This document shows positions 1-7,493 of a stretch of DNA of 57,363 nt, piece after piece. Numbering within the stretch: position 1 is the stretch's first letter; the number at the start of each line of letters is the position of its first letter. The notes under the pieces were generated by a model. It was not told the origin of the DNA, did no database searches, and was given only the letters and a program-made list of their open reading frames with translations. Position numbers and translations under genes: made by a program. Source of the stretch: a virus (Duplodnaviria > Caudoviricetes); the IMG/VR virus record IMGVR_UViG_3300020420_000002, positions 1 to 57,363 of that record, one strand, 5' to 3'.

Positions 1-77
1 GAATTTCGCGTAGAAGGCGAAGAATTCAAACATTATGCGAACGAATGGTGGAAAAAAGTAGATCAATATTACAAACA
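1..77. repeat. Terminal direct repeat (identical to 57287-57363); circular-assembly overlap
   Basis: 77 bp exact match between the window ends; an ORF reads in frame across the junction. Confidence 0.95.
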
Positions 78-99
78 AAAGGTTGACAAAGGTAAATAA
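1..99 (+). CDS. 3' end of the PD-(D/E)XK exonuclease that starts at 56690
   Basis: Frame EFRVEGEEFKHYANEWWKKVDQYYKQKVDKGK* continues the 56690 ORF; TAA at 97-99. Confidence 0.85.
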   Translation, partial: EFRVEGEEFKHYANEWWKKVDQYYKQKVDKGK

Positions 100-110
100 T
101 ATCCTATATT
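83..110 (+). promoter_or_regulatory. Sigma70-type promoter with ATCCTATA motif
   Basis: TTGACA(83-88)-16 bp-TATATT(105-110); RBS GAAAGGA at 121-127. Confidence 0.6.
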
Positions 111-132
111 AACCTATAACGAAAGGATGAAT

Positions 133-306
133 ATGAAACTAACAAACTGTAATGACTGCGAAGGCAAAGGCTACTATACTGACGTTATAAGTAGCGGTTT
201 ATCTGACCCAAATGACCCTTATCACGAGCCACATATTGAGAGATGTGATACATGTAAGGTATTTAATGACGACGTAGAGGCAAAAGAATATCATGAAAAA
301 AATTAA
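133..306 (+). CDS. Small zinc-finger protein (57 aa)
   Basis: Manual translation MKLTNCNDCEGKG...RCDTCK; CxxCxGxG plus CxxC; good RBS. Confidence 0.75.
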   Translation: MKLTNCNDCEGKGYYTDVISSGLSDPNDPYHEPHIERCDTCKVFNDDVEAKEYHEKN

Positions 307-460
307 AATAGAATTGACCGAGGATGAACTTCATTCAATTATGAGCATCCTAACTGTTAAATCTATGGGTGGTAATTTAGATGCTGACGATAAAACATTA
401 GGTAAAAAAATTCACGAAGCATTAAAAAAACTGGAGAAGAAAAATGAAAAACATGCTTGA
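293..460 (+). CDS. Hypothetical protein (55 aa)
   Basis: Manual translation MKKIKIELTEDELHSI...; overlaps both neighbours in operon style. Confidence 0.6.
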   Translation: MKKIKIELTEDELHSIMSILTVKSMGGNLDADDKTLGKKIHEALKKLEKKNEKHA

Positions 461-632
461 TATACTAGAGACATTTACTGATGAGGAATGGAAGAAGGCT
501 AAAAAAGAAATGACTAAAAGAATTCCTAGTATGAAAATTGATAAGATGTCAATGGAGGAGTTTAAATTATTATCTAAATTTTTAGCAGGCCCTAACTTTG
601 AAGACATAAACAAAAGCAAGAGGATACACTAA
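444..632 (+). CDS. Hypothetical protein
   Basis: ORF track; GGAG RBS upstream. Confidence 0.65.
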   Translation: MKNMLDILETFTDEEWKKAKKEMTKRIPSMKIDKMSMEEFKLLSKFLAGPNFEDINKSKRIH

Positions 633-808
633 TGATAAATGAGAACATGGCAGCAAAATCGGAAAAATCGGTAAAAACGGCAAAATCGGAAAAACCAGTA
701 AAAATAGATCTAAAAGGAGTTGTTTTTTGTAAGGCTAAAAAATGTATGAATTCTTTGTATAAAAATGAGAGCAGTAGTTTTAAGGGATATTGTCAGGATT
801 GTGATTAA
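632..808 (+). CDS. Small Cys-rich protein (58 aa) with a 9-bp tandem repeat region
   Basis: Manual translation ...AKSEKSVKTAKSEKPVK...CKAKKC...CQDCD*; TAATG overlap with the upstream stop. Confidence 0.6.
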   Translation: MINENMAAKSEKSVKTAKSEKPVKIDLKGVVFCKAKKCMNSLYKNESSSFKGYCQDCD

Positions 809-854
809 AATACAACAATGTGTTGTAAATAAGTCACAATAAAGGCAGGTATTT

Positions 855-1111
855 ACCTATAGACTTTTTTTGCCAGAAAAATTTTTTTGTTTTTCAATTT
901 ACGAATCGTGGTTACAATGGTTACAATGACATTCAATCGACTATTATTAGCAAATACCAACGGTTCTAGGCCATAATTTTGTAACAAATCTTGGTTACAA
1001 TGTGGTTACAGTGGTTACAATCCAGTAAAATCAACACTTTTAGCAAACCCGTACGCGCGCATAAGAAAATGTTTTTGAAAAAAATGTGTCCTAGAGAAAA
1101 AAACTATAGGT
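855..1111. repeat. Iteron-like GGTTACA repeats inside an imperfect inverted repeat; candidate replication origin
   Basis: GGTTACA at 910, 919, 993, 1004, 1013; inverted TGTAAC at 980; arms ACCTATAG+T tracts (855) and A tracts+CTATAGGT (1104-1111); non-coding. Confidence 0.55.
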
Positions 1112-1124
1112 GCTATAAGTAGAT

Positions 1125-1412
1125 ATGCGTAGAAATAAGAAATCCAAATTTAAACACGTCGTGATCGGTTCAAAGAAGTATTATTTTTACCGCCTCGAGT
1201 GGATCGATATAACGGGGGACGCAGGCCATGCATCAATAGAAGAATTTGATAAATTCGAATGCAGCAAAATGATAACGCATGCATACATTTACAAACGAAA
1301 TAAAAAATTCGTTTGGACATTTGCATCATATGAAGATAAAGACGTTTCATTTTCAGACCGTAATATATTTCCTGTGGGATGTATTGTTAAATTAGAGAAG
1401 ATTACTCTTTAG
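1125..1412 (+). CDS. Hypothetical phage protein
   Basis: 95 aa ORF with plausible composition. Confidence 0.7.
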   Translation: MRRNKKSKFKHVVIGSKKYYFYRLEWIDITGDAGHASIEEFDKFECSKMITHAYIYKRNKKFVWTFASYEDKDVSFSDRNIFPVGCIVKLEKITL

Positions 1413-1881
1413 ATTCCTCGACTACTTCTGCGTTGCCATCAATGATAGGCTTGAAATTCTTCAAAGCTTTTTCTAACATTTTATCTAACTCAGACTCTTC
1501 CAGGTTATCTAAGTTTTTATGCAGATGTAGATTGGTATTATTTTGATAGCCGCCGGCCTTACCTCTGGCAACTTCAGCGTTGATAGCAGCGCTCCAGGCT
1601 TTTGATTCTCTTGCTTCATCTCTCAATTGGCCCAGTTCACCTAAGTGAGATTCCATACTAATATCGTATTTTTTTAATTTTTCACTTCTTAACCTGCCTA
1701 TGTACTGACTAACTAGAGGGTACATTGATGGGTTTTGAAGCTTACTTGCAGAGACATAGGCAGAATTAGGATCATAACCCGCTTCGATAGCACAGTCGGT
1801 AGCAGTTTTCCTACCTTCATTTGCTACTACTAAATTAGCGAACTTAACTTGTTTTTCTGTAAGTCTTTTTGGTAAACCCAT
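1402..1881 (-). CDS. terS: Terminase small subunit
   Basis: N-terminal LTEKQVKFA...ATDCAIEAGY...SAYVSASKL HTH typical of TerS; ATG at 1881 chosen. Confidence 0.8.
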   Translation of the reverse strand: MGLPKRLTEKQVKFANLVVANEGRKTATDCAIEAGYDPNSAYVSASKLQNPSMYPLVSQYIGRLRSEKLKKYDISMESHLGELGQLRDEARESKAWSAAINAEVARGKAGGYQNNTNLHLHKNLDNLEESELDKMLEKALKNFKPIIDGNAEVVEESKE

Positions 1882-1884
1882 AAC

Positions 1885-1917
1885 TTGCAATATAAATTAT
1901 TTTTGGTATATGTTCAA
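1885..1917. promoter_or_regulatory. Overlapping divergent promoters, probably leaderless transcripts
   Basis: Plus: TTGCAA-16-TATATG, ATG 8 nt later (1921). Minus: TTGAAC-17-TATATT, ATG 7 nt later (1881). No room for an RBS. Confidence 0.55.
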
Positions 1918-1920
1918 GTG

Positions 1921-2148
1921 ATGGTAACAGGAAAGCTATTAAGGAAAGTCTTAGATAAATTCTTAAAGTCACCCGTAGTGCAAGAAGCTAGAGTGCAGAT
2001 CTGCATGCCCAATGGCGAGATGTTTGATATCAAGGATATTAAATTAATGGAAAACCAATTACTTGGTGTCCGTGAATCTCATAGATTAGTGATGACAGTT
2101 TATAAATCTAAGTGGAATATGGGTGAAGTCATAAAAAAAATTGATTAG
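1921..2148 (+). CDS. Hypothetical protein
   Basis: ORF track frame; ATG at 1921. Confidence 0.7.
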   Translation: MVTGKLLRKVLDKFLKSPVVQEARVQICMPNGEMFDIKDIKLMENQLLGVRESHRLVMTVYKSKWNMGEVIKKID

Positions 2149-2176
2149 CCAGAGAGTAACGGACTTAGCCTAAAAA

Positions 2177-2548
2177 ATGATTAAAGGTGAGACTAAATTC
2201 TGGCATGAAATTAAGACGTTCAACACTAAAAATAATTGCGAATTATCATTTACACGCGTGGAAAATAGTGCTGCACATGGGACTCCTGATCTACTGGGCT
2301 ACAATACTTCTGGCCACTTTTTTACCGTCGAATTAAAGTTAAAAAAAGCTAAAAAAATTCTTTTTTCTCCACATCAAATTGGCTTTCATTTGACTCATCC
2401 GAACAATAGTTTCATCATGCTAAAGGCCCTCGGTCCTTTAGCCATAAAACTTTATGAGGGAAGGTTTATAGAAGAACTAATTAAGGGGAAGGCAGAACCG
2501 TGTGCCACGGGTATGTTGTCAAGCTTAAAATTTTTACAAAAAGTTTAG
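2177..2548 (+). CDS. PD-(D/E)XK nuclease, Holliday-junction-resolvase/VRR-NUC-like
   Basis: E...RVEN...GTPDLLG...FTVELK...SPHQ motif. Confidence 0.8.
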   Translation: MIKGETKFWHEIKTFNTKNNCELSFTRVENSAAHGTPDLLGYNTSGHFFTVELKLKKAKKILFSPHQIGFHLTHPNNSFIMLKALGPLAIKLYEGRFIEELIKGKAEPCATGMLSSLKFLQKV

Positions 2549-2610
2549 CGTCCTATAATATCCTACACAAAAGTCAACGGACAAAGTGTCGCGGCCCGAG
2601 AGAAGAGCTT

Positions 2611-2626
2611 GTGGGCGGGACCCACC
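2611..2626 (+). repeat. GC-rich palindromic repeat, copy 1 of 7
   Basis: GTGGGCGGGACCCACC preceded by AGAGAAGAGCTT. Confidence 0.9.
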
Positions 2627-2674
2627 CGTGGCCTGCGGCCTGTGCTTGCGACTTGTGGACTATGGTGCGTGCTT

Positions 2675-2690
2675 GTGGGCGGGACCCACC
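2675..2690 (+). repeat. GC-rich palindromic repeat, copy 2 of 7
   Basis: GTGGGCGGGACCCACC. Confidence 0.9.
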
Positions 2691-2793
2691 CAATTTTTTT
2701 ATTTATGCTTGAGGGCTGGTGGAATACAACCAGCCCCCGCTTGAGGGTTTCCCAATTTTAGGTGTAGTACAACCCCACAATCGAACACCATTC

Positions 2794-3402
2794 CTAATGT
2801 TCACCATAAGAAATATTTTTAATTTTTGGATTCCAGCATTTTCTACAGTCGAGACATTGCCCGCCCTGCTGCGGCGCTGGACATGTTGCTTTTTTAGTCA
2901 CAACAGTGGAAGTATTCGGCCAGCTTTTAATTGGTCCCTGATCAACCATTGGTGAAGAAATTCTAATTGTTAAATTCTTCGGCGCTCTTTGTAAGTGGTC
3001 CTTGATCCAAGCTTCTTTGGTTGGCATCCAATGGCGCCTTGATGGCGTCCGTTTACATACTTCAAAAATTTTATTTAAATGATCCAGGCTTTGTACATCG
3101 CCTGAGTCGTGCCATCTAAAAACATCGGGCTTTTTATTATTAATCAAAGTCGTCATTGCGTGGACCCATAACTCATGTTTAAGGGCCTTCAATCTTCTGT
3201 ATTGTGCATCTTGTACGATCTTAAAAACGTAACAACCTTTAAGAGCATAACAATTGCTACAGACGCTGCCTTCTACTTTTTGCAGCTTGCCGCCCGTGTT
3301 GCATTCTTTAGCAGGAAGGCCAATTGACCATCCAGGCATTTTGCCAGGCTTGCTTAGGCCTCCTACTATCTCCCACGCTTGAGCCGTGTTTAATTCTTTC
3401 AT
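2794..3402 (-). CDS. Phage Gp88-like protein (Cys-rich)
   Basis: SKPGKMPG..LPAKEC..VCSNCYA..FRWHDSGD..CPA..CLDCRKCW pattern of the GP88 family. Confidence 0.75.
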   Translation of the reverse strand: MKELNTAQAWEIVGGLSKPGKMPGWSIGLPAKECNTGGKLQKVEGSVCSNCYALKGCYVFKIVQDAQYRRLKALKHELWVHAMTTLINNKKPDVFRWHDSGDVQSLDHLNKIFEVCKRTPSRRHWMPTKEAWIKDHLQRAPKNLTIRISSPMVDQGPIKSWPNTSTVVTKKATCPAPQQGGQCLDCRKCWNPKIKNISYGEH

Positions 3403-3521
3403 TTTTTATTTTTTTTAATTACCGCTTTTTCTAGTTCCATTATGAAACCCGAATATTCTTTTGTAATTTCTTCGCCGTAACACTTTTTCCAAGCGTCTAA
3501 TATTTCCTTAATTGTAAGCAT
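3399..3521 (-). CDS. Hypothetical protein (40 aa)
   Basis: Manual translation MLTIKEILDAWKKCYG...; RBS AGGAAGGA; ATGA overlap with the gp88-like gene. Confidence 0.65.
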   Translation of the reverse strand: MLTIKEILDAWKKCYGEEITKEYSGFIMELEKAVIKKNKK

Positions 3522-3622
3522 AATTATTATATTCCTTCCTTTTAATGCGGCTAGTAAACGTCAGTTTAAAACATCTTTCAATTCACCAGAACAAGCTGGC
3601 CGCCTCTCTTACTAGCCTGTTT

Positions 3623-3652
3623 TATATATAGGATATTATAGGAATATGTCAA
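3623..3652 (-). promoter_or_regulatory. Sigma70-type promoter with tandem TCCTATA operator
   Basis: Minus strand reads TTGACA-TATTCCTATAATATCC-TATATA. Confidence 0.65.
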
Positions 3653-3689
3653 GCGTTTAAAAATTTTATTTTCAACTAAAAAGTGATTG

Positions 3690-3705
3690 ACACAACATAT
3701 AGTGG
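3690..3705. promoter_or_regulatory. NrdR-box-like site
   Basis: ACACAACATATAGTGG, 14/16 to the NrdR consensus acaCwAtATaTwGtgt. Confidence 0.6.
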
Positions 3706-3771
3706 TTAGTGCATGTGGGCGGGACCCACCCTTTGAGCTTGTGGTTAGTGCTTGTGGGCGGGACCCACCCT
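3702..3771 (+). repeat. GC-rich palindromic repeat, copies 3 and 4 (31-bp near-perfect tandem)
   Basis: GTGGTTAGTGCWTGTGGGCGGGACCCACCCT at 3702 and 3741; cores at 3715 and 3754. Confidence 0.9.
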
Positions 3772-3786
3772 AAAAAATAAAAAGGC

Positions 3787-4100
3787 TTAGCCTGTTGCCT
3801 CGAGTACCTACCCATTCCTCGACATTTTAACGGTAGAATTAACAACAGGTTCCACGCCTGAGCGCATTGCTCGATCAGAACTCTGATCCCAGATCCATCG
3901 TTGGACTAATCGCTAGCTAGAACGCCCACGGTGGATCTGGGATCAGCCCCGAGGAATTGTTAGGGTATCCTCGGGGCCTAGGATCCTTGCATCACCTAAC
4001 CAGTGCAAGGATCTTAGCCCTTGGAAGATTCATATTTATCGAGGTGAACCTTCCGAACACCTCAGTGTTTGCCAGAGGTAGTTGCCCTTCAACTTAACAA
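3787..4100. ncRNA. Candidate structured non-coding RNA (at least 5 consecutive stems); strand uncertain
   Basis: Stems 3791-97/3843-49, 3883-97/3932-46 (15 bp perfect), 3947-55/3968-76, 3978-91/4004-17, 4021-4056; no ORF in the track; minus-strand promoter at 4110-4137. Confidence 0.55.
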
Positions 4101-4109
4101 TACAAATCC

Positions 4110-4137
4110 ACAATAACAGAATATCCTATAATGTAAA
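4110..4137 (-). promoter_or_regulatory. Promoter facing the structured region
   Basis: TTTACA-16-TATTGT with extended -10 TG and the TATAGGAT motif in the spacer. Confidence 0.45.
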
Positions 4138-4158
4138 GGACAATATTGTCGCACCTTA

Positions 4159-4175
4159 TTTAGAATCGTTCCAAT
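4159..4175. promoter_or_regulatory. Irr iron-control-element (ICE)-like site
   Basis: TTTAGAATCGTTCCAAT versus TTTRGAAYNRTTCYAAA, one terminal mismatch. Confidence 0.55.
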
Positions 4176-4189
4176 GTAGAGAAGAGCAT

Positions 4190-4205
4190 GTGGGCGGGGC
4201 CCACC
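4190..4205 (+). repeat. GC-rich palindromic repeat, copy 5 of 7
   Basis: GTGGGCGGGGCCCACC preceded by GTAGAGAAGAGCAT. Confidence 0.9.
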
Positions 4206-4249
4206 CTAAAAAAAGAAAAAATTTTTTTTAGTTTTTTTAAATTATTTGT

Positions 4250-4278
4250 TTGACAGTTATCCTATAATTTCCTATAAC
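4250..4278 (+). promoter_or_regulatory. Strong sigma70-type early promoter with tandem TCCTATA
   Basis: TTGACA-17-TATAAC, upstream A/T tracts, spacer ATCCTATAATTTCCTATA. Confidence 0.75.
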
Positions 4279-4319
4279 AAATCAGTTGTAATAATAACAA
4301 AAACAGAAAGGAATACATT

Positions 4320-4910
4320 ATGCAACCATTAAGAAAAGACCACGTTGACCACTACAAAGATGTTGTGCATGAAGAGTTTAATAATGCGTCTTCATCTATT
4401 GAAAGTGAAATCCATGTTAAAGCTAGTGAGATAACAGATAAGAAATCACCTCACTTTGCAAAGGAACTTGGGTTTGATAAATTAATTTCAGAACTAGATA
4501 AGAGAGTTAAAAAACTTCTGAAATTTCAAAACGAAAAAGCCAGAATAGAGCATGACCTTGAGGTTGAAGCTAGAAAAGTAGCTGAAAAAATTGAGGACAA
4601 ATTTTCTGGTTTAAGAAGATATAGAAAATGGAGTACTGATATGAGTTCTATTAAGGTTAAAGATGAAAACCCAATAGACTATGTAACAAAAAAAATAAAA
4701 AAAGTTTGTTACGAGGAAGCAGAAAAGCATGTCAGGAAAGGTCATAAATTATATCATGCACTTGGAAATAAAAGAAAAAAGTGTTTGAATATACTTTATA
4801 CTGGAAGCCATATTCAACCAACATTAGTTGAGTTGAGTAAGGAAATGAAAACCGCTAATATTGAATTACAGATACCAAGTTCTTTATTAGCTTTACCACC
4901 GACTAAATAA
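4320..4910 (+). CDS. Hypothetical coiled-coil early protein
   Basis: 196 aa ORF; RBS GAAAGGA. Confidence 0.8.
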   Translation: MQPLRKDHVDHYKDVVHEEFNNASSSIESEIHVKASEITDKKSPHFAKELGFDKLISELDKRVKKLLKFQNEKARIEHDLEVEARKVAEKIEDKFSGLRRYRKWSTDMSSIKVKDENPIDYVTKKIKKVCYEEAEKHVRKGHKLYHALGNKRKKCLNILYTGSHIQPTLVELSKEMKTANIELQIPSSLLALPPTK

Positions 4911-4911
4911 T

Positions 4912-5088
4912 ATGGAAATATTATTATATTCTGGCATGGTTTTAATCATTGGTGGTTTTGGATTGTTTTTATATTCAGAAATAAAGTTACGAGAAATAGA
5001 TCGTAAAATGTTTTTGAATGAGCAATTACATAAATCATTCATGGAAGCAAAAAAAGAAAGTGAGGATAAACAATTAAAATTATTCTAA
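4912..5088 (+). CDS. Small membrane protein (58 aa) ending in QLKLF
   Basis: Manual translation MEILLYSGMVLIIGGFGLFLYSEIKLREIDRKMFLNEQLHKSFMEAKKESEDKQLKLF*. Confidence 0.7.
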   Translation: MEILLYSGMVLIIGGFGLFLYSEIKLREIDRKMFLNEQLHKSFMEAKKESEDKQLKLF

Positions 5089-5097
5089 CTTAAAACT

Positions 5098-5124
5098 TGG
5101 CGCGAGATTAACACACTCGCGCCA
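5098..5124. terminator. GC-rich hairpin, probable terminator
   Basis: TGGCGCGAG/CTCGCGCCA 9-bp stem just after the stop; no clear U tract on plus. Confidence 0.5.
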
Positions 5125-5149
5125 CCGAAAAAAAATTAGATAAGAGCAT

Positions 5150-5165
5150 GTGGGCGGGACCCACC
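5150..5165 (+). repeat. GC-rich palindromic repeat, copy 6 of 7
   Basis: GTGGGCGGGACCCACC preceded by TAGATAAGAGCAT. Confidence 0.9.
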
Positions 5166-5174
5166 CATATAAAA

Positions 5175-5204
5175 AAACAATATGTTGTGGTTAAGTTATC
5201 CACA
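5175..5204. promoter_or_regulatory. NrdR-box-like site overlapping an inverted DnaA-box pair
   Basis: AAACAATATGTTGTGG (5175-5190, 13/16 NrdR); TGTGGTTAA (5186-94, 1 mismatch) and perfect TTATCCACA (5196-5204). Confidence 0.5.
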
Positions 5205-5241
5205 GGCACTAAAATTAATTTAAAAATAATGAATTATTTTC

Positions 5242-5269
5242 TTGCAAATAAAATCCTATAAATTATATT
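5242..5269 (+). promoter_or_regulatory. Sigma70-type promoter with ATCCTATA
   Basis: TTGCAA-16-TATATT. Confidence 0.55.
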
Positions 5270-5301
5270 ACATTTAAATTAACTTAACGAAAGGAATACA
5301 A

Positions 5302-5760
5302 ATGGCTTTAATAATACACTACGAAGGTTTAAAGCACTTTAACAATGACGGCGGTTTTCTTCCAGGTGGCTTTGGAAAAAAACAAGCTGATCAAATCGGT
5401 TGGTTTATGATGTCAGCTGGCATCACGGAAATCACAGAAAAAAATATTCCAGAACTTTTATTTAGAGCAAAGTTTATGGATACTTGTTGTGGTGGAGTAC
5501 CGGTTTTTTATAACCCAAATGTTTTTGAAGAGAAGGGTACTAAAGTTTGTGACTACAAAGATGTAGCTTATAACTTTAAAAAACATTTAGGTTTAAAAAT
5601 AGAGGTAACAAATCAAGGAATAAAATTACCTGGAACTAGACATCAATTCATGGTCCAAGTTATGAGAAGCATGGAACGAGATATCTTATGGGATATAAAA
5701 GATATCGATACAGATGTTAGTTGGAAAGATCATGTAAAGGAGGAACACGTGAATAATTAG
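5302..5760 (+). CDS. Hypothetical early protein
   Basis: 152 aa ORF; RBS GAAAGGA. Confidence 0.8.
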   Translation: MALIIHYEGLKHFNNDGGFLPGGFGKKQADQIGWFMMSAGITEITEKNIPELLFRAKFMDTCCGGVPVFYNPNVFEEKGTKVCDYKDVAYNFKKHLGLKIEVTNQGIKLPGTRHQFMVQVMRSMERDILWDIKDIDTDVSWKDHVKEEHVNN

Positions 5761-5772
5761 TTTCGTTAAGCC

Positions 5773-5822
5773 ATGCGGTTCTTGCATAGGGTATCCTACA
5801 ATATCCTATGCAGAAACTGCAT
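5773..5822. other. Long imperfect hairpin (~22 bp) containing ATCCTA motifs
   Basis: ATGCGGTTCTTGCATAGGGTAT / ATATCCTATGCAGAAACTGCAT. Confidence 0.5.
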
Positions 5823-5851
5823 ACCACTCTGGGTTGTGTAGAGAAGAGCAT

Positions 5852-5867
5852 GTGGGCGGGACCCACC
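5852..5867 (+). repeat. GC-rich palindromic repeat, copy 7 of 7
   Basis: GTGGGCGGGACCCACC preceded by GTAGAGAAGAGCAT; followed by an inverted core GGGTCCC at 5873. Confidence 0.9.
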
Positions 5868-5896
5868 ACTAGGGGTCCCAATAGGAATTACTTTTA

Positions 5897-5912
5897 TGTT
5901 TCACGTGAAACA
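5897..5912. promoter_or_regulatory. parS: parS site (chromosomal ParB/Spo0J-type)
   Basis: Perfect palindrome TGTTTCACGTGAAACA, the canonical chromosomal parS consensus; intergenic. Confidence 0.8.
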
Positions 5913-6017
5913 TTTTTTGCGATCCCCCCTTTGGCTAGTAGGGGTCCCAGACATACACTATAGTGTTTGATTTACTCAGTCATTCGGATATAATACTTTC
6001 TACCCATATTGAATTAT

Positions 6018-7493
6018 ATGCTAACAGTACAAGATATAAATAAAATTGAAGATCCTATCGAAAGAAAAAAACTAAAGATACAGATCATACAAAGACATCA
6101 AAGAAAAGAGCTCAAACAAATTCGTACCAATTTTTTGACTTTTGTAAAAAAGATGTGGCCAGATTTTATAGAGGGGTCCCACCATGAGACTATCGCAGAT
6201 AAGTTTAATAAACTTGCAACAGGAGAGCTCACTCGTTTAATTATCAATATGCCACCCAGGCATACCAAATCAGAATTTGCATCATTCTTTTTACCTGCTT
6301 GGATGATCGGGCAGAATCCAAAATTAAAAATTATTCAAGCAACTCACACAGCCGAGCTTGCAATAAACTTTGGAAGAAAAACAAAACATCTAATTGATTC
6401 TAGTGAATATCAAAATGTTTTTAAAACAAGACTCCAAGAAGATAGTAAAGCTGCAGGACGTTGGAATACTTCTGATGGCGGTGAGTATTTTGCAGTCGGT
6501 GTCCAAGGTGCGGTAACCGGTAGAGGTGCAGACTTATTAATTATAGATGATCCACATTCAGAGCAAGATGTGAGCTCACCAAATGCATTCGATAAAGCAT
6601 ACGAGTGGTATACTAGTGGACCGAGGCAAAGGCTTCAACCAGGAGGAAGAATTGTTTTGGTTATGACACGTTGGTCAACAAAAGATCTTACACAAAAATT
6701 ATTAAACGCACAGTCGAACGAGAACGGTGATCAGTGGGACGTGATTGAGTTTCCTGCGGTCTTACCTAATGGTAAACCAGTCTGGCCAGAATATTGGAAG
6801 CTCGAGGACCTCGAATCTGTTAAGGCGGCAACAGGTGTTGCAAAATGGAACGCGCAGTACATGCAGAACCCAACATCAGAAGAAGGAGCTCTAATCAAAA
6901 GAGAGTGGTGGAAAGATTGGGAACACGATCATTTACCAGTTATCGATCACATTATTCAAAGTTACGATACAGCATATCTTAAAAAAGAGACTGCCGATTA
7001 TTCTGCTATTACAACATGGGGAATTTTTCGTCCGAACGAGGACAGCGGACCTAATTTAATATTATTAGATTCGTTTAAAGATAGGTTAGAGTTTCCAGAA
7101 CTTCGTCGTGTTGCATTAGAACAATATAAATATTGGAATCCTGAAACAGTTATCATAGAAGCAAAAGCATCAGGACTTCCGTTGATGTACGAATTACGAC
7201 AGATGGGAATTCCTGCTATGAATTTTACACCATCAAAAGGTCAAGATAAAATTGCAAGAGTTAATGCAGTCTCTCCTATGTTCGAAGCCGGACAAGTGTG
7301 GGCACCTTTGAAAGAAGAGTTTGCCCAAGAGTTAGTTGAAGAGTGTGCTGCGTTTCCATATGGCGACCATGATGATTTAGTTGACTCCACGACTCAAGCT
7401 CTGTTAAGATACAGACAAGGTGGTTTAGTAAGACACCCAGAAGACTATCAAGATGAACCTGGTCCCAAACGTAAAAAGAAGTTTTATTGGTAA
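6018..7493 (+). CDS. terL: Terminase large subunit
   Basis: INMPPRHTKS Walker A, LLIIDDP Walker B, SYDTA and HDDLVDS nuclease motifs. Confidence 0.95.
   Translation: MLTVQDINKIEDPIERKKLKIQIIQRHQRKELKQIRTNFLTFVKKMWPDFIEGSHHETIADKFNKLATGELTRLIINMPPRHTKSEFASFFLPAWMIGQNPKLKIIQATHTAELAINFGRKTKHLIDSSEYQNVFKTRLQEDSKAAGRWNTSDGGEYFAVGVQGAVTGRGADLLIIDDPHSEQDVSSPNAFDKAYEWYTSGPRQRLQPGGRIVLVMTRWSTKDLTQKLLNAQSNENGDQWDVIEFPAVLPNGKPVWPEYWKLEDLESVKAATGVAKWNAQYMQNPTSEEGALIKREWWKDWEHDHLPVIDHIIQSYDTAYLKKETADYSAITTWGIFRPNEDSGPNLILLDSFKDRLEFPELRRVALEQYKYWNPETVIIEAKASGLPLMYELRQMGIPAMNFTPSKGQDKIARVNAVSPMFEAGQVWAPLKEEFAQELVEECAAFPYGDHDDLVDSTTQALLRYRQGGLVRHPEDYQDEPGPKRKKKFYW

Follow-up and report, generated by a model that had tools for sequence, protein, structure and literature searches.

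The virus record IMGVR_UViG_3300020420_000002 (IMG/VR) is a DNA of 57,363 bases, which was analyzed in full and is called the window below. Between a 123-amino-acid (aa) open reading frame (ORF) and the large terminase gene, terL, it has a region of small genes and short spacers (2570-5970). An initial annotation, made from the letters alone, proposed that these spacers are an island of binding sites for five host proteins: ParB, NrdR, DnaA, Irr, and RegA. We compared this region with those of its relatives. The comparison revealed gene cassettes bounded by copies of a GC-hairpin repeat. It also points to a single host-type centromere, parS, that appears to be under selection and to a DnaA box that behaves as a selected site in part of the clade.

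Organization of the locus

The two ends of the window overlap, and its record is listed with direct terminal repeats and a completeness of 100, so the phage genome in the window is complete. PHROGs and Pfam searches found terL, portal, head and tail genes, a family A DNA polymerase, and a primase, as well as helicases, GroES, and several 2OG-Fe(II) oxygenases. No tRNA or tmRNA genes were found in the window. The nearest named phages by TerL identity are phage 023Pt_psg01 (70%), Pelagibacter phage HTVC027P (68%), and HTVC023P (59%), which places the window among the HTVC023P-type pelagiphages. Phages of this type infect SAR11, which is more abundant than any other marine bacterium. Among the species-representative genomes searched, the sole TerL match (66% identity) was on a 1.8-kb contig (L088) filed under a Nitrospinales metagenome-assembled genome. 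That contig is more likely to be a binning passenger than a host signal. HTVC027P is described in the main text of PMC12753301 as having neither an RNA polymerase of its own nor any early gene of known function.

A TerL scan of IMG/VR matched at least 597 stretches, and the best 80 loci were kept (84 to 99% TerL identity). Complete arrays, spanning everything between the 123-aa ORF and terL, were available for the window and 21 loci. Two pairs of loci are near-duplicates (L016/L017 and L061/L062), so these 22 arrays amount to about 20 independent ones. Chance expectations were obtained by counting over 100 dinucleotide-preserving shuffles of the window. All regulator consensus sequences were plain strings, neither position weight matrices nor taken from a curated matrix. 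A blastn search of the array region against 50,697 phage records gave no match.

The features of the array are on the plus strand unless noted otherwise. The 123-aa ORF that forms the left boundary (2177-2548; phrog_2165) has a PD-(D/E)XK-like motif, recognized by eye, and no Pfam match at an E value of ≤0.01. It is followed by a promoter-like TCCTATAAT motif and a conserved leader (2551-2597), which a regular expression finds in 21 of the 22 arrays. Copy 1 of the GC-hairpin repeat (2598-2628), which has a AGAGAAGAGC flank, and copy 2 (2662-2692), which precedes a T run, have a short array of CYTGYGG-type repeats between them (2627-2674). Cassette D (2794-3521) is on the minus strand and consists of a GP88-family ORF (2794-3402; PF17338, E = 1.6e-26) and a 40-aa ORF (3399-3521). 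Repeat copies 3 and 4 are in tandem with a 39-nt period (3702-3771). They are followed by cassette H, a GC-rich noncoding stretch with a chain of long hairpins (3776-4125, no strand assigned), by a second TCCTATAAT motif with its leader (4124-4176), and by copy 5, a GGGGCCC variant (4177-4207). Cassette F (4320-5088) has ORFs of 196 and 58 aa behind a sigma-70-like promoter, TTGACA-17-TATAAC (4250-4278), which was found by eye and whose layout recurs in relatives. Next come copy 6 (5137-5167), the sigma-70-like promoter of cassette E (5242-5269), and cassette E itself, a 152-aa ORF (5302-5760). Neither cassette F nor cassette E has a PHROGs or Pfam family match. The array ends with a third motif (TCCTACAAT) and its leader hairpin (5794-5838), copy 7 (5839-5869), parS (5897-5912), and a sigma-70-like promoter, TTGATT-16-TATAAT (5967-5994), that is conserved in all 22 arrays. 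Its right boundary is terL (6009-7493).

A terS-like ORF (1402-1890, minus strand; phrog_51, with PF03592 exactly at the cutoff) lies 4 kb from terL and on the other strand. The two terminase genes flank the entire cassette array.

A GC-hairpin repeat bounds the cassettes

The 16-mer GTGGGCGGGRCCCACC occurs seven times in the window, always on the plus strand (at 2611, 2675, 3715, 3754, 4190, 5150, and 5852), and was not found in any of the 100 shuffles. It is confined to 2611-5867. The conserved unit is 28 to 31 nt long and has a 5' flank of one of two kinds, AGAGAAGAGCWT or GGTTAGTGCWT, followed by the hairpin GTGGGCGGGACCCACCC. We found the repeat in 77 of the 80 related loci, co-oriented with terL except for one overlap with two mismatches. 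Its orientation is constant whatever the strand of the neighboring genes. One orientation is kept even beside the minus-strand cassette D, and therefore the repeat does not track the direction of transcription.

When the 22 arrays were cut at the repeat copies and the segments were clustered, the resulting map was C, A, D, A, H/unique, F/I/K, E/J, B. Cassette insertions, losses, and replacements among these arrays coincide exactly with repeat copies. Contigs from RNA libraries of other samples are joined across the same points (2627/2628, 4206, and 5867); as contigs, these data show neither transcripts, transcript ends, nor levels. The repeat copies are co-oriented boundary elements for the gain, loss, and replacement of cassettes. 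Their fixed orientation fits a role at the level of DNA, because direct repeats allow cassette exchange without inversions, and it fits strand-specific termination less well. This repeat-bounded array explains the turnover of the variable region in the HTVC023P-type group.

Six runs recorded as RNA contain 0.05 to 0.10 of the sampled window words. A high RNA-library figure at 4178-4304 was rejected as an expression signal: it falls on an A/T run in oligo-dT libraries.

The spacers of the array also hold sigma-70-like promoters with a TCCTAYAWW motif, for which 8 of the 12 genome-wide matches are within 1-5802. Among 136 unique contexts of repeat copies, 56 have this motif up to 95 nt upstream, and 62 have a TTGACA-like hexamer up to 130 nt downstream. 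One alternative is that everything in this region acts as RNA, with promoter-leader-hairpin units serving as small RNAs or attenuators and palindromes as transcript hairpins or terminators. Three units do consist of a TCCTAYAAT motif, a 40- to 60-nt leader with a small hairpin, and then the GC hairpin, and cassette H is strongly structured. However, the repeat keeps its orientation beside cassette D, and four of the five short units fold unremarkably to moderately (z = +1.0, -0.4, -0.9, and -2.5). Rfam gave no match either, at the gathering score over the window or at an E value of ≤1 over 2500-6050. Together with the behavior of parS and of the DnaA box described below, this makes a purely RNA-level function very improbable. 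The 350-nt stretch of cassette H itself (fold z = -6.69; none of 100 shuffles as good) shows mosaic conservation in relatives and could be a noncoding RNA or a DNA-level element. One of its hairpins (about 3947-3978) is common to HTVC027P (locus L081, 6563-6602); by eye, both stem strands have changed around a conserved loop.

Two other readings of the repeat were rejected. An NTG triplet precedes the hairpin (ATG 62, TTG 57, GTG 12, and CTG 5 of 136), as for the start of a mini-ORF, but the frames downstream differ and what is conserved is the nucleotide sequence, and this reading was dropped. A boxA/boxB-like reading on the minus strand was discarded as well: most copies have no minus-strand promoter upstream.

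HTVC027P does not have the GC-hairpin repeat. At the equivalent spacers of its locus (4985-5115, 5865-5915, and 6195-6220) it has arrays of the octamer GCTTGNGG, the word that opens the window repeat (GCTTGTGG-GCGGG...). We take this octamer to be one base from the Escherichia coli Chi sequence. The heptamer CYTGYGG occurs 26 times in the window, compared with 10.7 expected, and no shuffle of 100 reaches 26. Six copies are on the plus strand in the array (2608-3757), and in 6001-57363 there are 16 on the minus strand and 2 on the plus strand. Only 3 of 420 letter-permutations match this bias, and the polarity flips near terL, as it would for co-oriented Chi-like sites on a linear genome with ends near terL. 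An ordinary alternative is codon usage (CCA CAR G).

A chromosomal-type parS occurs once in nearly every array

The initial annotation had reported a perfect parS at 5897-5912, and this was confirmed. The sequence there, TGTTTCACGTGAAACA, matches the parS consensus TGTTNCACGTGAAACA, the chromosomal ParB site, at 16 of 16 positions, where 0.00 sites are expected by chance. It is one of three perfect palindromes of at least 16 bp in the genome. A site matching TGTTNCACGTGNAACA with at most one mismatch occurs exactly once in 21 of the 22 arrays. In 10 arrays, including that of the window, it is in segment B, 97 bp upstream of terL. In 11 arrays it is in segment A, directly after the first repeat copy (the start of the stretch that corresponds to 2627-2674) and 3 kb from the segment B place. 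It is never in both segments, and arrays with a segment A parS have, by eye, an apparently decayed parS at the segment B place. In two more loci, parS precedes a middle repeat copy by 29 nt. The place of parS needs at least two to three changes on the terL tree and is largely clade-bound. The complete genomes G001 and G002 (doubled at record ends) and HTVC027P have one parS core each.

Within the site, 15 of 16 columns are invariant in one set of arrays, compared with 85 of 147 in the flanks; in the other set, the figures are 12 of 16 and 18 of 94. Changes are confined to the outer two positions and to the position that the consensus leaves free (TTTTTCACGTGAAACA is one parS variant). There are no compensatory changes, so the constraint is on the sequence and not on a hairpin. 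Keeping the sequence in this way in 21 arrays is not what a transcript hairpin or terminator predicts. The T run after parS in the window is terminator-like, whereas the segment A parS has none.

Taken together, these comparisons indicate that parS in the window's subclade is a real, selected site. A cognate protein is not encoded by the phage: a six-frame search of the window for the ParB_N domain gave no match at an E value of ≤10. The ParA-to-ParB gene pair is reported to be conserved in Pelagibacter genomes (bioRxiv 10.64898/2026.04.03.716430). With exactly one parS kept and no ParB gene of its own, the phage is likely to recruit a segregation protein of its host.

The palindrome might instead be the site of a phage protein, either a pac site for the small terminase or the operator of a phage regulator, with its identity to parS a coincidence. 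It is always within a few kilobases of terS (1402-1890, minus strand) and terL, its position 97 bp before terL recurs in 10 arrays, and it adjoins terS in HTVC027P. However, a coincidence would have to produce a 16/16 match to the best-known bacterial centromere where 0.00 are expected, in a genome with only three such palindromes. The changes that are tolerated are also those that the ParB consensus allows. Two places 3 kb apart would be odd for a pac site that is tied to the start of packaging. Finally, perfect parS sites occur in many unrelated viral records without ParB_N (48 of 50 examined). We therefore regard a phage-protein site as quite improbable.

Several further observations were made around parS. 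A 51-aa ORF that runs over it (5808-5963) was rejected as a gene; indels there in relatives are not multiples of three. A box, GGGGTCCCA, occurs twice around parS (5869-5950) and once inside terL (6170-6180). In relatives, the first copy reads GGGGACCC and would pair with the second. The HTVC027P ortholog of the 123-aa ORF holds a stretch that matches parS at 15 of 16 positions and encodes AFHVKH. This 123-codon frame (L081, 4694-5066), the ortholog of 2177-2548, is between gp31 and gp32, contains the only parS-like site of that phage, and is not among the annotated coding sequences of its record (MN698241.1).

A DnaA box precedes the cassette E promoter in part of the clade

The inverted pair of DnaA boxes reported at 5186-5204 is also present. 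The 9-mer TTATCCACA is exact at 5196-5204 (9/9), and its inverted neighbor at 5186-5194 matches at 8 of 9 positions. The box heads the cassette E spacer, about 40 to 50 nt upstream of the -35 element of the cassette E promoter. At least one exact 9-mer is found in 13 of the 22 arrays, and the 80 loci have 49 occurrences, 28 on the plus strand and 21 on the minus strand. In different relatives, a AAAGTTATCCACAG block is at the same place upstream of the cassette E promoter in either orientation; in others, it is missing together with its neighbors. Because either orientation is kept at the same place, the 9-mer behaves like a protein-binding DNA site, which again argues against a function as RNA. 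In part of the clade, then, the DnaA box would be a DNA site that behaves as selected.

NrdR-, Irr-, and RegA-like sequences

The remaining proposed sites fared less well. For NrdR, we used the 16-bp palindrome acaCwAtATaTwGtgt, and five sites with up to three mismatches were found in the window, compared with 1.72 expected. This is borderline, because 2 of 100 shuffles reach 5. Both boxes of the initial annotation are among the matching sequences: 3690-3705 has two mismatches, overlaps a TTGACA, and is shared with the closest relatives alone (L002, L004, L005, and L007), and 5175-5190 has three mismatches and adjoins the DnaA box. At the same threshold, NrdR-like palindromes are in 9 of the 22 arrays and missing from 13. 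Of 31 hits in the 80 loci, 30 are inside arrays, in about six different contexts, and L039 and L040 have the perfect consensus at a promoter. An NrdR operator has a tandem pair of boxes, spaced by about three helical turns, before nrd genes. The phage boxes are never in this tandem spacing. The pair in the window is 1,485 bp apart, and the closest pair in relatives is 47 bp apart (L066 and L071). At homologous positions, other relatives have unrelated hairpins. These palindromes may be operators of some other protein.

The Irr-type iron control element (ICE) was searched for as TTTAGAA-N3-TTCTAAA with up to two mismatches, which gave four sites compared with 1.90 expected (13 of 100 shuffles reach 4). 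The box at 4159-4175 is present, with two mismatches. It is an optional hairpin insert in the promoter leader that is absent in L080, L048, and L039, and such matches are in 6 of the 22 arrays and absent from 16. L060 has a perfect palindrome. A perfect palindrome in a relative is weak evidence, because it amounts to a half-site match of only 7 to 8 nt in a region full of hairpins.

For RegA/PrrA/RegR, the consensus strings were GCGNC-N5-GNCGC and GNGRCRTTNNGNCGC. RegR-type matches with up to three mismatches numbered 80, below the 110.68 expected, and all 100 shuffles reach 80. Of the two RegA-like sites in the leaders, 2578-2593 gives a RegR-type match (2578-2592) only at 3 mismatches of 11 specified positions, and 4138-4153 gives none even at 3. 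Neither has a PrrA-type match with up to one mismatch. The GGACAA..TGTCGC stretches concerned are kept in 21 of the 22 arrays (by regular expression), where they make up the 20 to 30 nt directly behind the TCCTATAAT motif. In the conserved leaders and hairpins, likeness to Irr and RegA sites is a product of chance.

Thus, all of the sequences in the initial annotation exist, its RegA sites being weak, and it was correct that this complete genome has no recognizable parB, nrdR, dnaA, irr, or ribonucleotide reductase (RNR) genes. Besides the ParB_N result, no ParB, NrdR, DnaA, Fur, or RNR family was found among 86 ORFs (Pfam) or 67 ORFs (PHROGs), and neither scan found nrd genes. As a set of five host operators, the proposal survives for parS and the DnaA box, loses Irr and RegA, and is left with NrdR-like sites that recur in a noncanonical arrangement. 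Against shuffles, only parS is in clear excess and NrdR is borderline, whereas ICE, DnaA, and RegR matches are at chance. Of the 22 arrays, 21 have parS, 13 the DnaA box, 9 NrdR-like palindromes, and 6 ICE-like matches. The sites were also said to be within about 40 bp of a repeat, and all are 10 to 37 bp from a copy. This proximity is uninformative, because every spacer in the region holds a repeat.

The initial annotation suggested that replicating phage DNA titrates host ParB, NrdR, DnaA, Irr, and RegA, with derepression of deoxynucleoside triphosphate (dNTP) synthesis, a shift in iron allocation, and stalled replication or segregation. The parS and DnaA-box sites that behave as selected are consistent with it, and so are the concentration of NrdR-like palindromes in arrays, the perfect NrdR consensus in two relatives, and the perfect ICE-type palindrome in a third. 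In the main text of PMC12753301, host nrdA is reported to rise 3.1- to 8.9-fold and nrdB 2.5- to 5.8-fold in HTVC027P infection, and host iron-metabolism genes also go up. However, a rise in nrd expression is also expected from a drain on dNTPs alone, and the 19-kb locus of HTVC027P has neither the GC-hairpin repeat nor the DnaA 9-mer. The chance-level counts of ICE-, RegR-, and DnaA-type matches in the window, the lack of tandem NrdR-like boxes, and the patchy occurrence of NrdR- and ICE-like sequences argue against titration as well. Moreover, one parS and at most a few boxes per genome would be a weak sink. A decoy island is therefore improbable.

Proposed role of the region

We favor, with a probability of about 0.55, a model in which 2570-5970 is where this complete, lytic pelagiphage of the HTVC023P type has its early genes, in a hyperplastic region of repeat-bounded cassettes that includes a host-type centromere under selection and, in some members of the clade, a DnaA box. 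The repeat copies would act as homologous-recombination boundaries and, with the sigma-70-like promoters that carry the TCCTATAAT motif, might punctuate transcription. The one parS per genome would load host ParB onto phage DNA. During the long latent period in a slowly growing host, such loading could help to position or segregate phage DNA or to compact it, and spreading ParB could gate the terL promoter, about 70 nt from parS. Depletion of ParB from the host origin as phage copies accumulate is a possible side effect. The DnaA box might couple the cassette E early promoter to host DnaA.

Several points weigh against this model. Some concern parS. ParB binding to this site is a prediction. 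The array of L080 has no parS, and neither do HTVC023P, 023Pt_psg01, or three HTVC027P-like records that are 86 to 95% complete. In the HTVC027P clade, the parS-like stretch is coding. The exact codons are present in 6 of 19 rows, and the others have synonymous variants, which are common, or other residues, so the stretch looks weakly constrained or unconstrained as a site. Because it varies there and other relatives have no parS, strong constraint is limited to the window's subclade. Independent parS events are also few, because some arrays are near-duplicates and the place of the site follows the phylogeny. The host, SAR11, is inferred from isolates with 59 to 68% TerL identity.

Other points concern the DnaA box and the repeat. 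DnaA matches with up to one mismatch number 19 in the window, compared with 17.38 expected, and 37 of 100 shuffles reach 19. The box is single and optional, being absent from 9 of the 22 arrays. Only one of the seven window copies of the repeat, copy 2, passed a terminator scan. Among the 136 repeat contexts, 34 have a T-rich tail and 63 an A-rich tail, so a terminator function of the repeat is not general. The model does not account for the conserved purine-rich flank. The repeat stem is invariant, and covariation therefore speaks neither for nor against an RNA structure.

A more far-reaching proposal is that these phages, which belong to the most abundant virus group known from the ocean, tie chromosome-maintenance proteins of the host into their early region. 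The relocating parS would strip ParB from the SAR11 origin as copies build up, and this would both time late (terL) expression by copy number and arrest host segregation and division, while the DnaA sites, and possibly the NrdR-like sites, would read or drain the host replication state. It would also make hijack of ParB by phages widespread. We consider this full version tentative and, on balance, unlikely.

Comparison with known systems and other viruses

The closest precedent is phi29, which according to PMC2731898 has five parS sites for host Spo0J, by which its genome gets into the spore, and Spo0A boxes that repress early promoters. Like the window phage, phi29 is a lytic podovirus without its own ParB that has chromosomal-type parS and host-regulator sites near early promoters. 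However, the window phage has exactly one parS, its inferred host is a non-sporulating marine alphaproteobacterium, and its second host-type site is a DnaA box and not a Spo0A box. Binding of host proteins decides the fate of phi29 DNA in that account, whereas the window phage is known from sequence alone. The initial annotation had offered, as an alternative to a decoy, that the sites are sensors by which early promoters read host state. By analogy, the phi29 precedent would favor the sensor more than the decoy.

The cassette array resembles the PeSL of T4-like phages, a composite of a stem-loop and an early-promoter motif that mediates modular shuffling (PMC4122927). In both cases, a hyperplastic region of small ORFs without known function has conserved stem-loops and sigma-70-like promoter motifs in its spacers, with indels and swaps at the motifs. 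The window hairpin differs in its far more strictly conserved GC stem with a purine-rich 5' flank, in the phage group, in the many copies that are not beside a promoter or T run, and in its single orientation. The repeat would work like a PeSL but is not a member of that family, because its relatives are HTVC023P-type podoviruses and not T4-like myoviruses.

The phage parS is the same 16-bp palindrome as that of chromosomal ParABS systems, in which ParB-CTP clamps bind it, and the host genus is described as keeping the ParA-to-ParB pair (in the preprint cited above). In contrast to those systems, the phage site is without parA and parB, is single, and is not in an origin-proximal cluster.

DnaA boxes are found in the control regions of lambda and P1 oriR, and datA is a DnaA sink. 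The window box likewise is a perfect high-affinity 9-mer upstream of a promoter and is kept in relatives, but it is single and optional, with no cluster and no recognizable adjacent origin.

Descriptions of parS, DnaA boxes, promoters, or intergenic repeats were not found for these phages, nor was a paper that joins parS, phage, and host ParB. The main texts of PMC9599517 and 10.1101/2019.12.14.876532 do not mention parS, promoter, or intergenic, and that of PMC12753301 does not mention promoter, parB, dnaA, or intergenic. There are precedents for a virulent phage that uses a host centromere and for cassettes of the PeSL kind. The new case is a single, relocating parS in SAR11 phages, in an array bounded by an unusually strict GC hairpin. 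This centromere is a testable handle on how the phage engages the host cell cycle during its long latent period. The clearest earlier example of a host-type parS on a lytic phage is phi29, in a spore former.

A wider survey found the perfect parS 16-mer in at least 119 IMG/VR records, of which some must be chance hits and many are fragments. Among 118 further parS loci listed, 1 has the GC-hairpin repeat, and 26 have two or more parS. A ParB_N match was found in 2 of the 50 longer parS records examined and in 1 of the 14 of these that are at least 90% complete. Even with these limits, a parS in the absence of ParB does not seem to be unusual in viral records. Most parS-bearing records examined have no ParB, and the phenomenon may be general. 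If so, many phages would hijack host ParB, a strategy of which little has been described outside phi29. Four records of 15 to 16 kb with inverted terminal repeats (G017, G022, G033, and G036) also hold a perfect parS, and two of the four have three parS each (at loci L151 and L157) and resemble the phi29 type.

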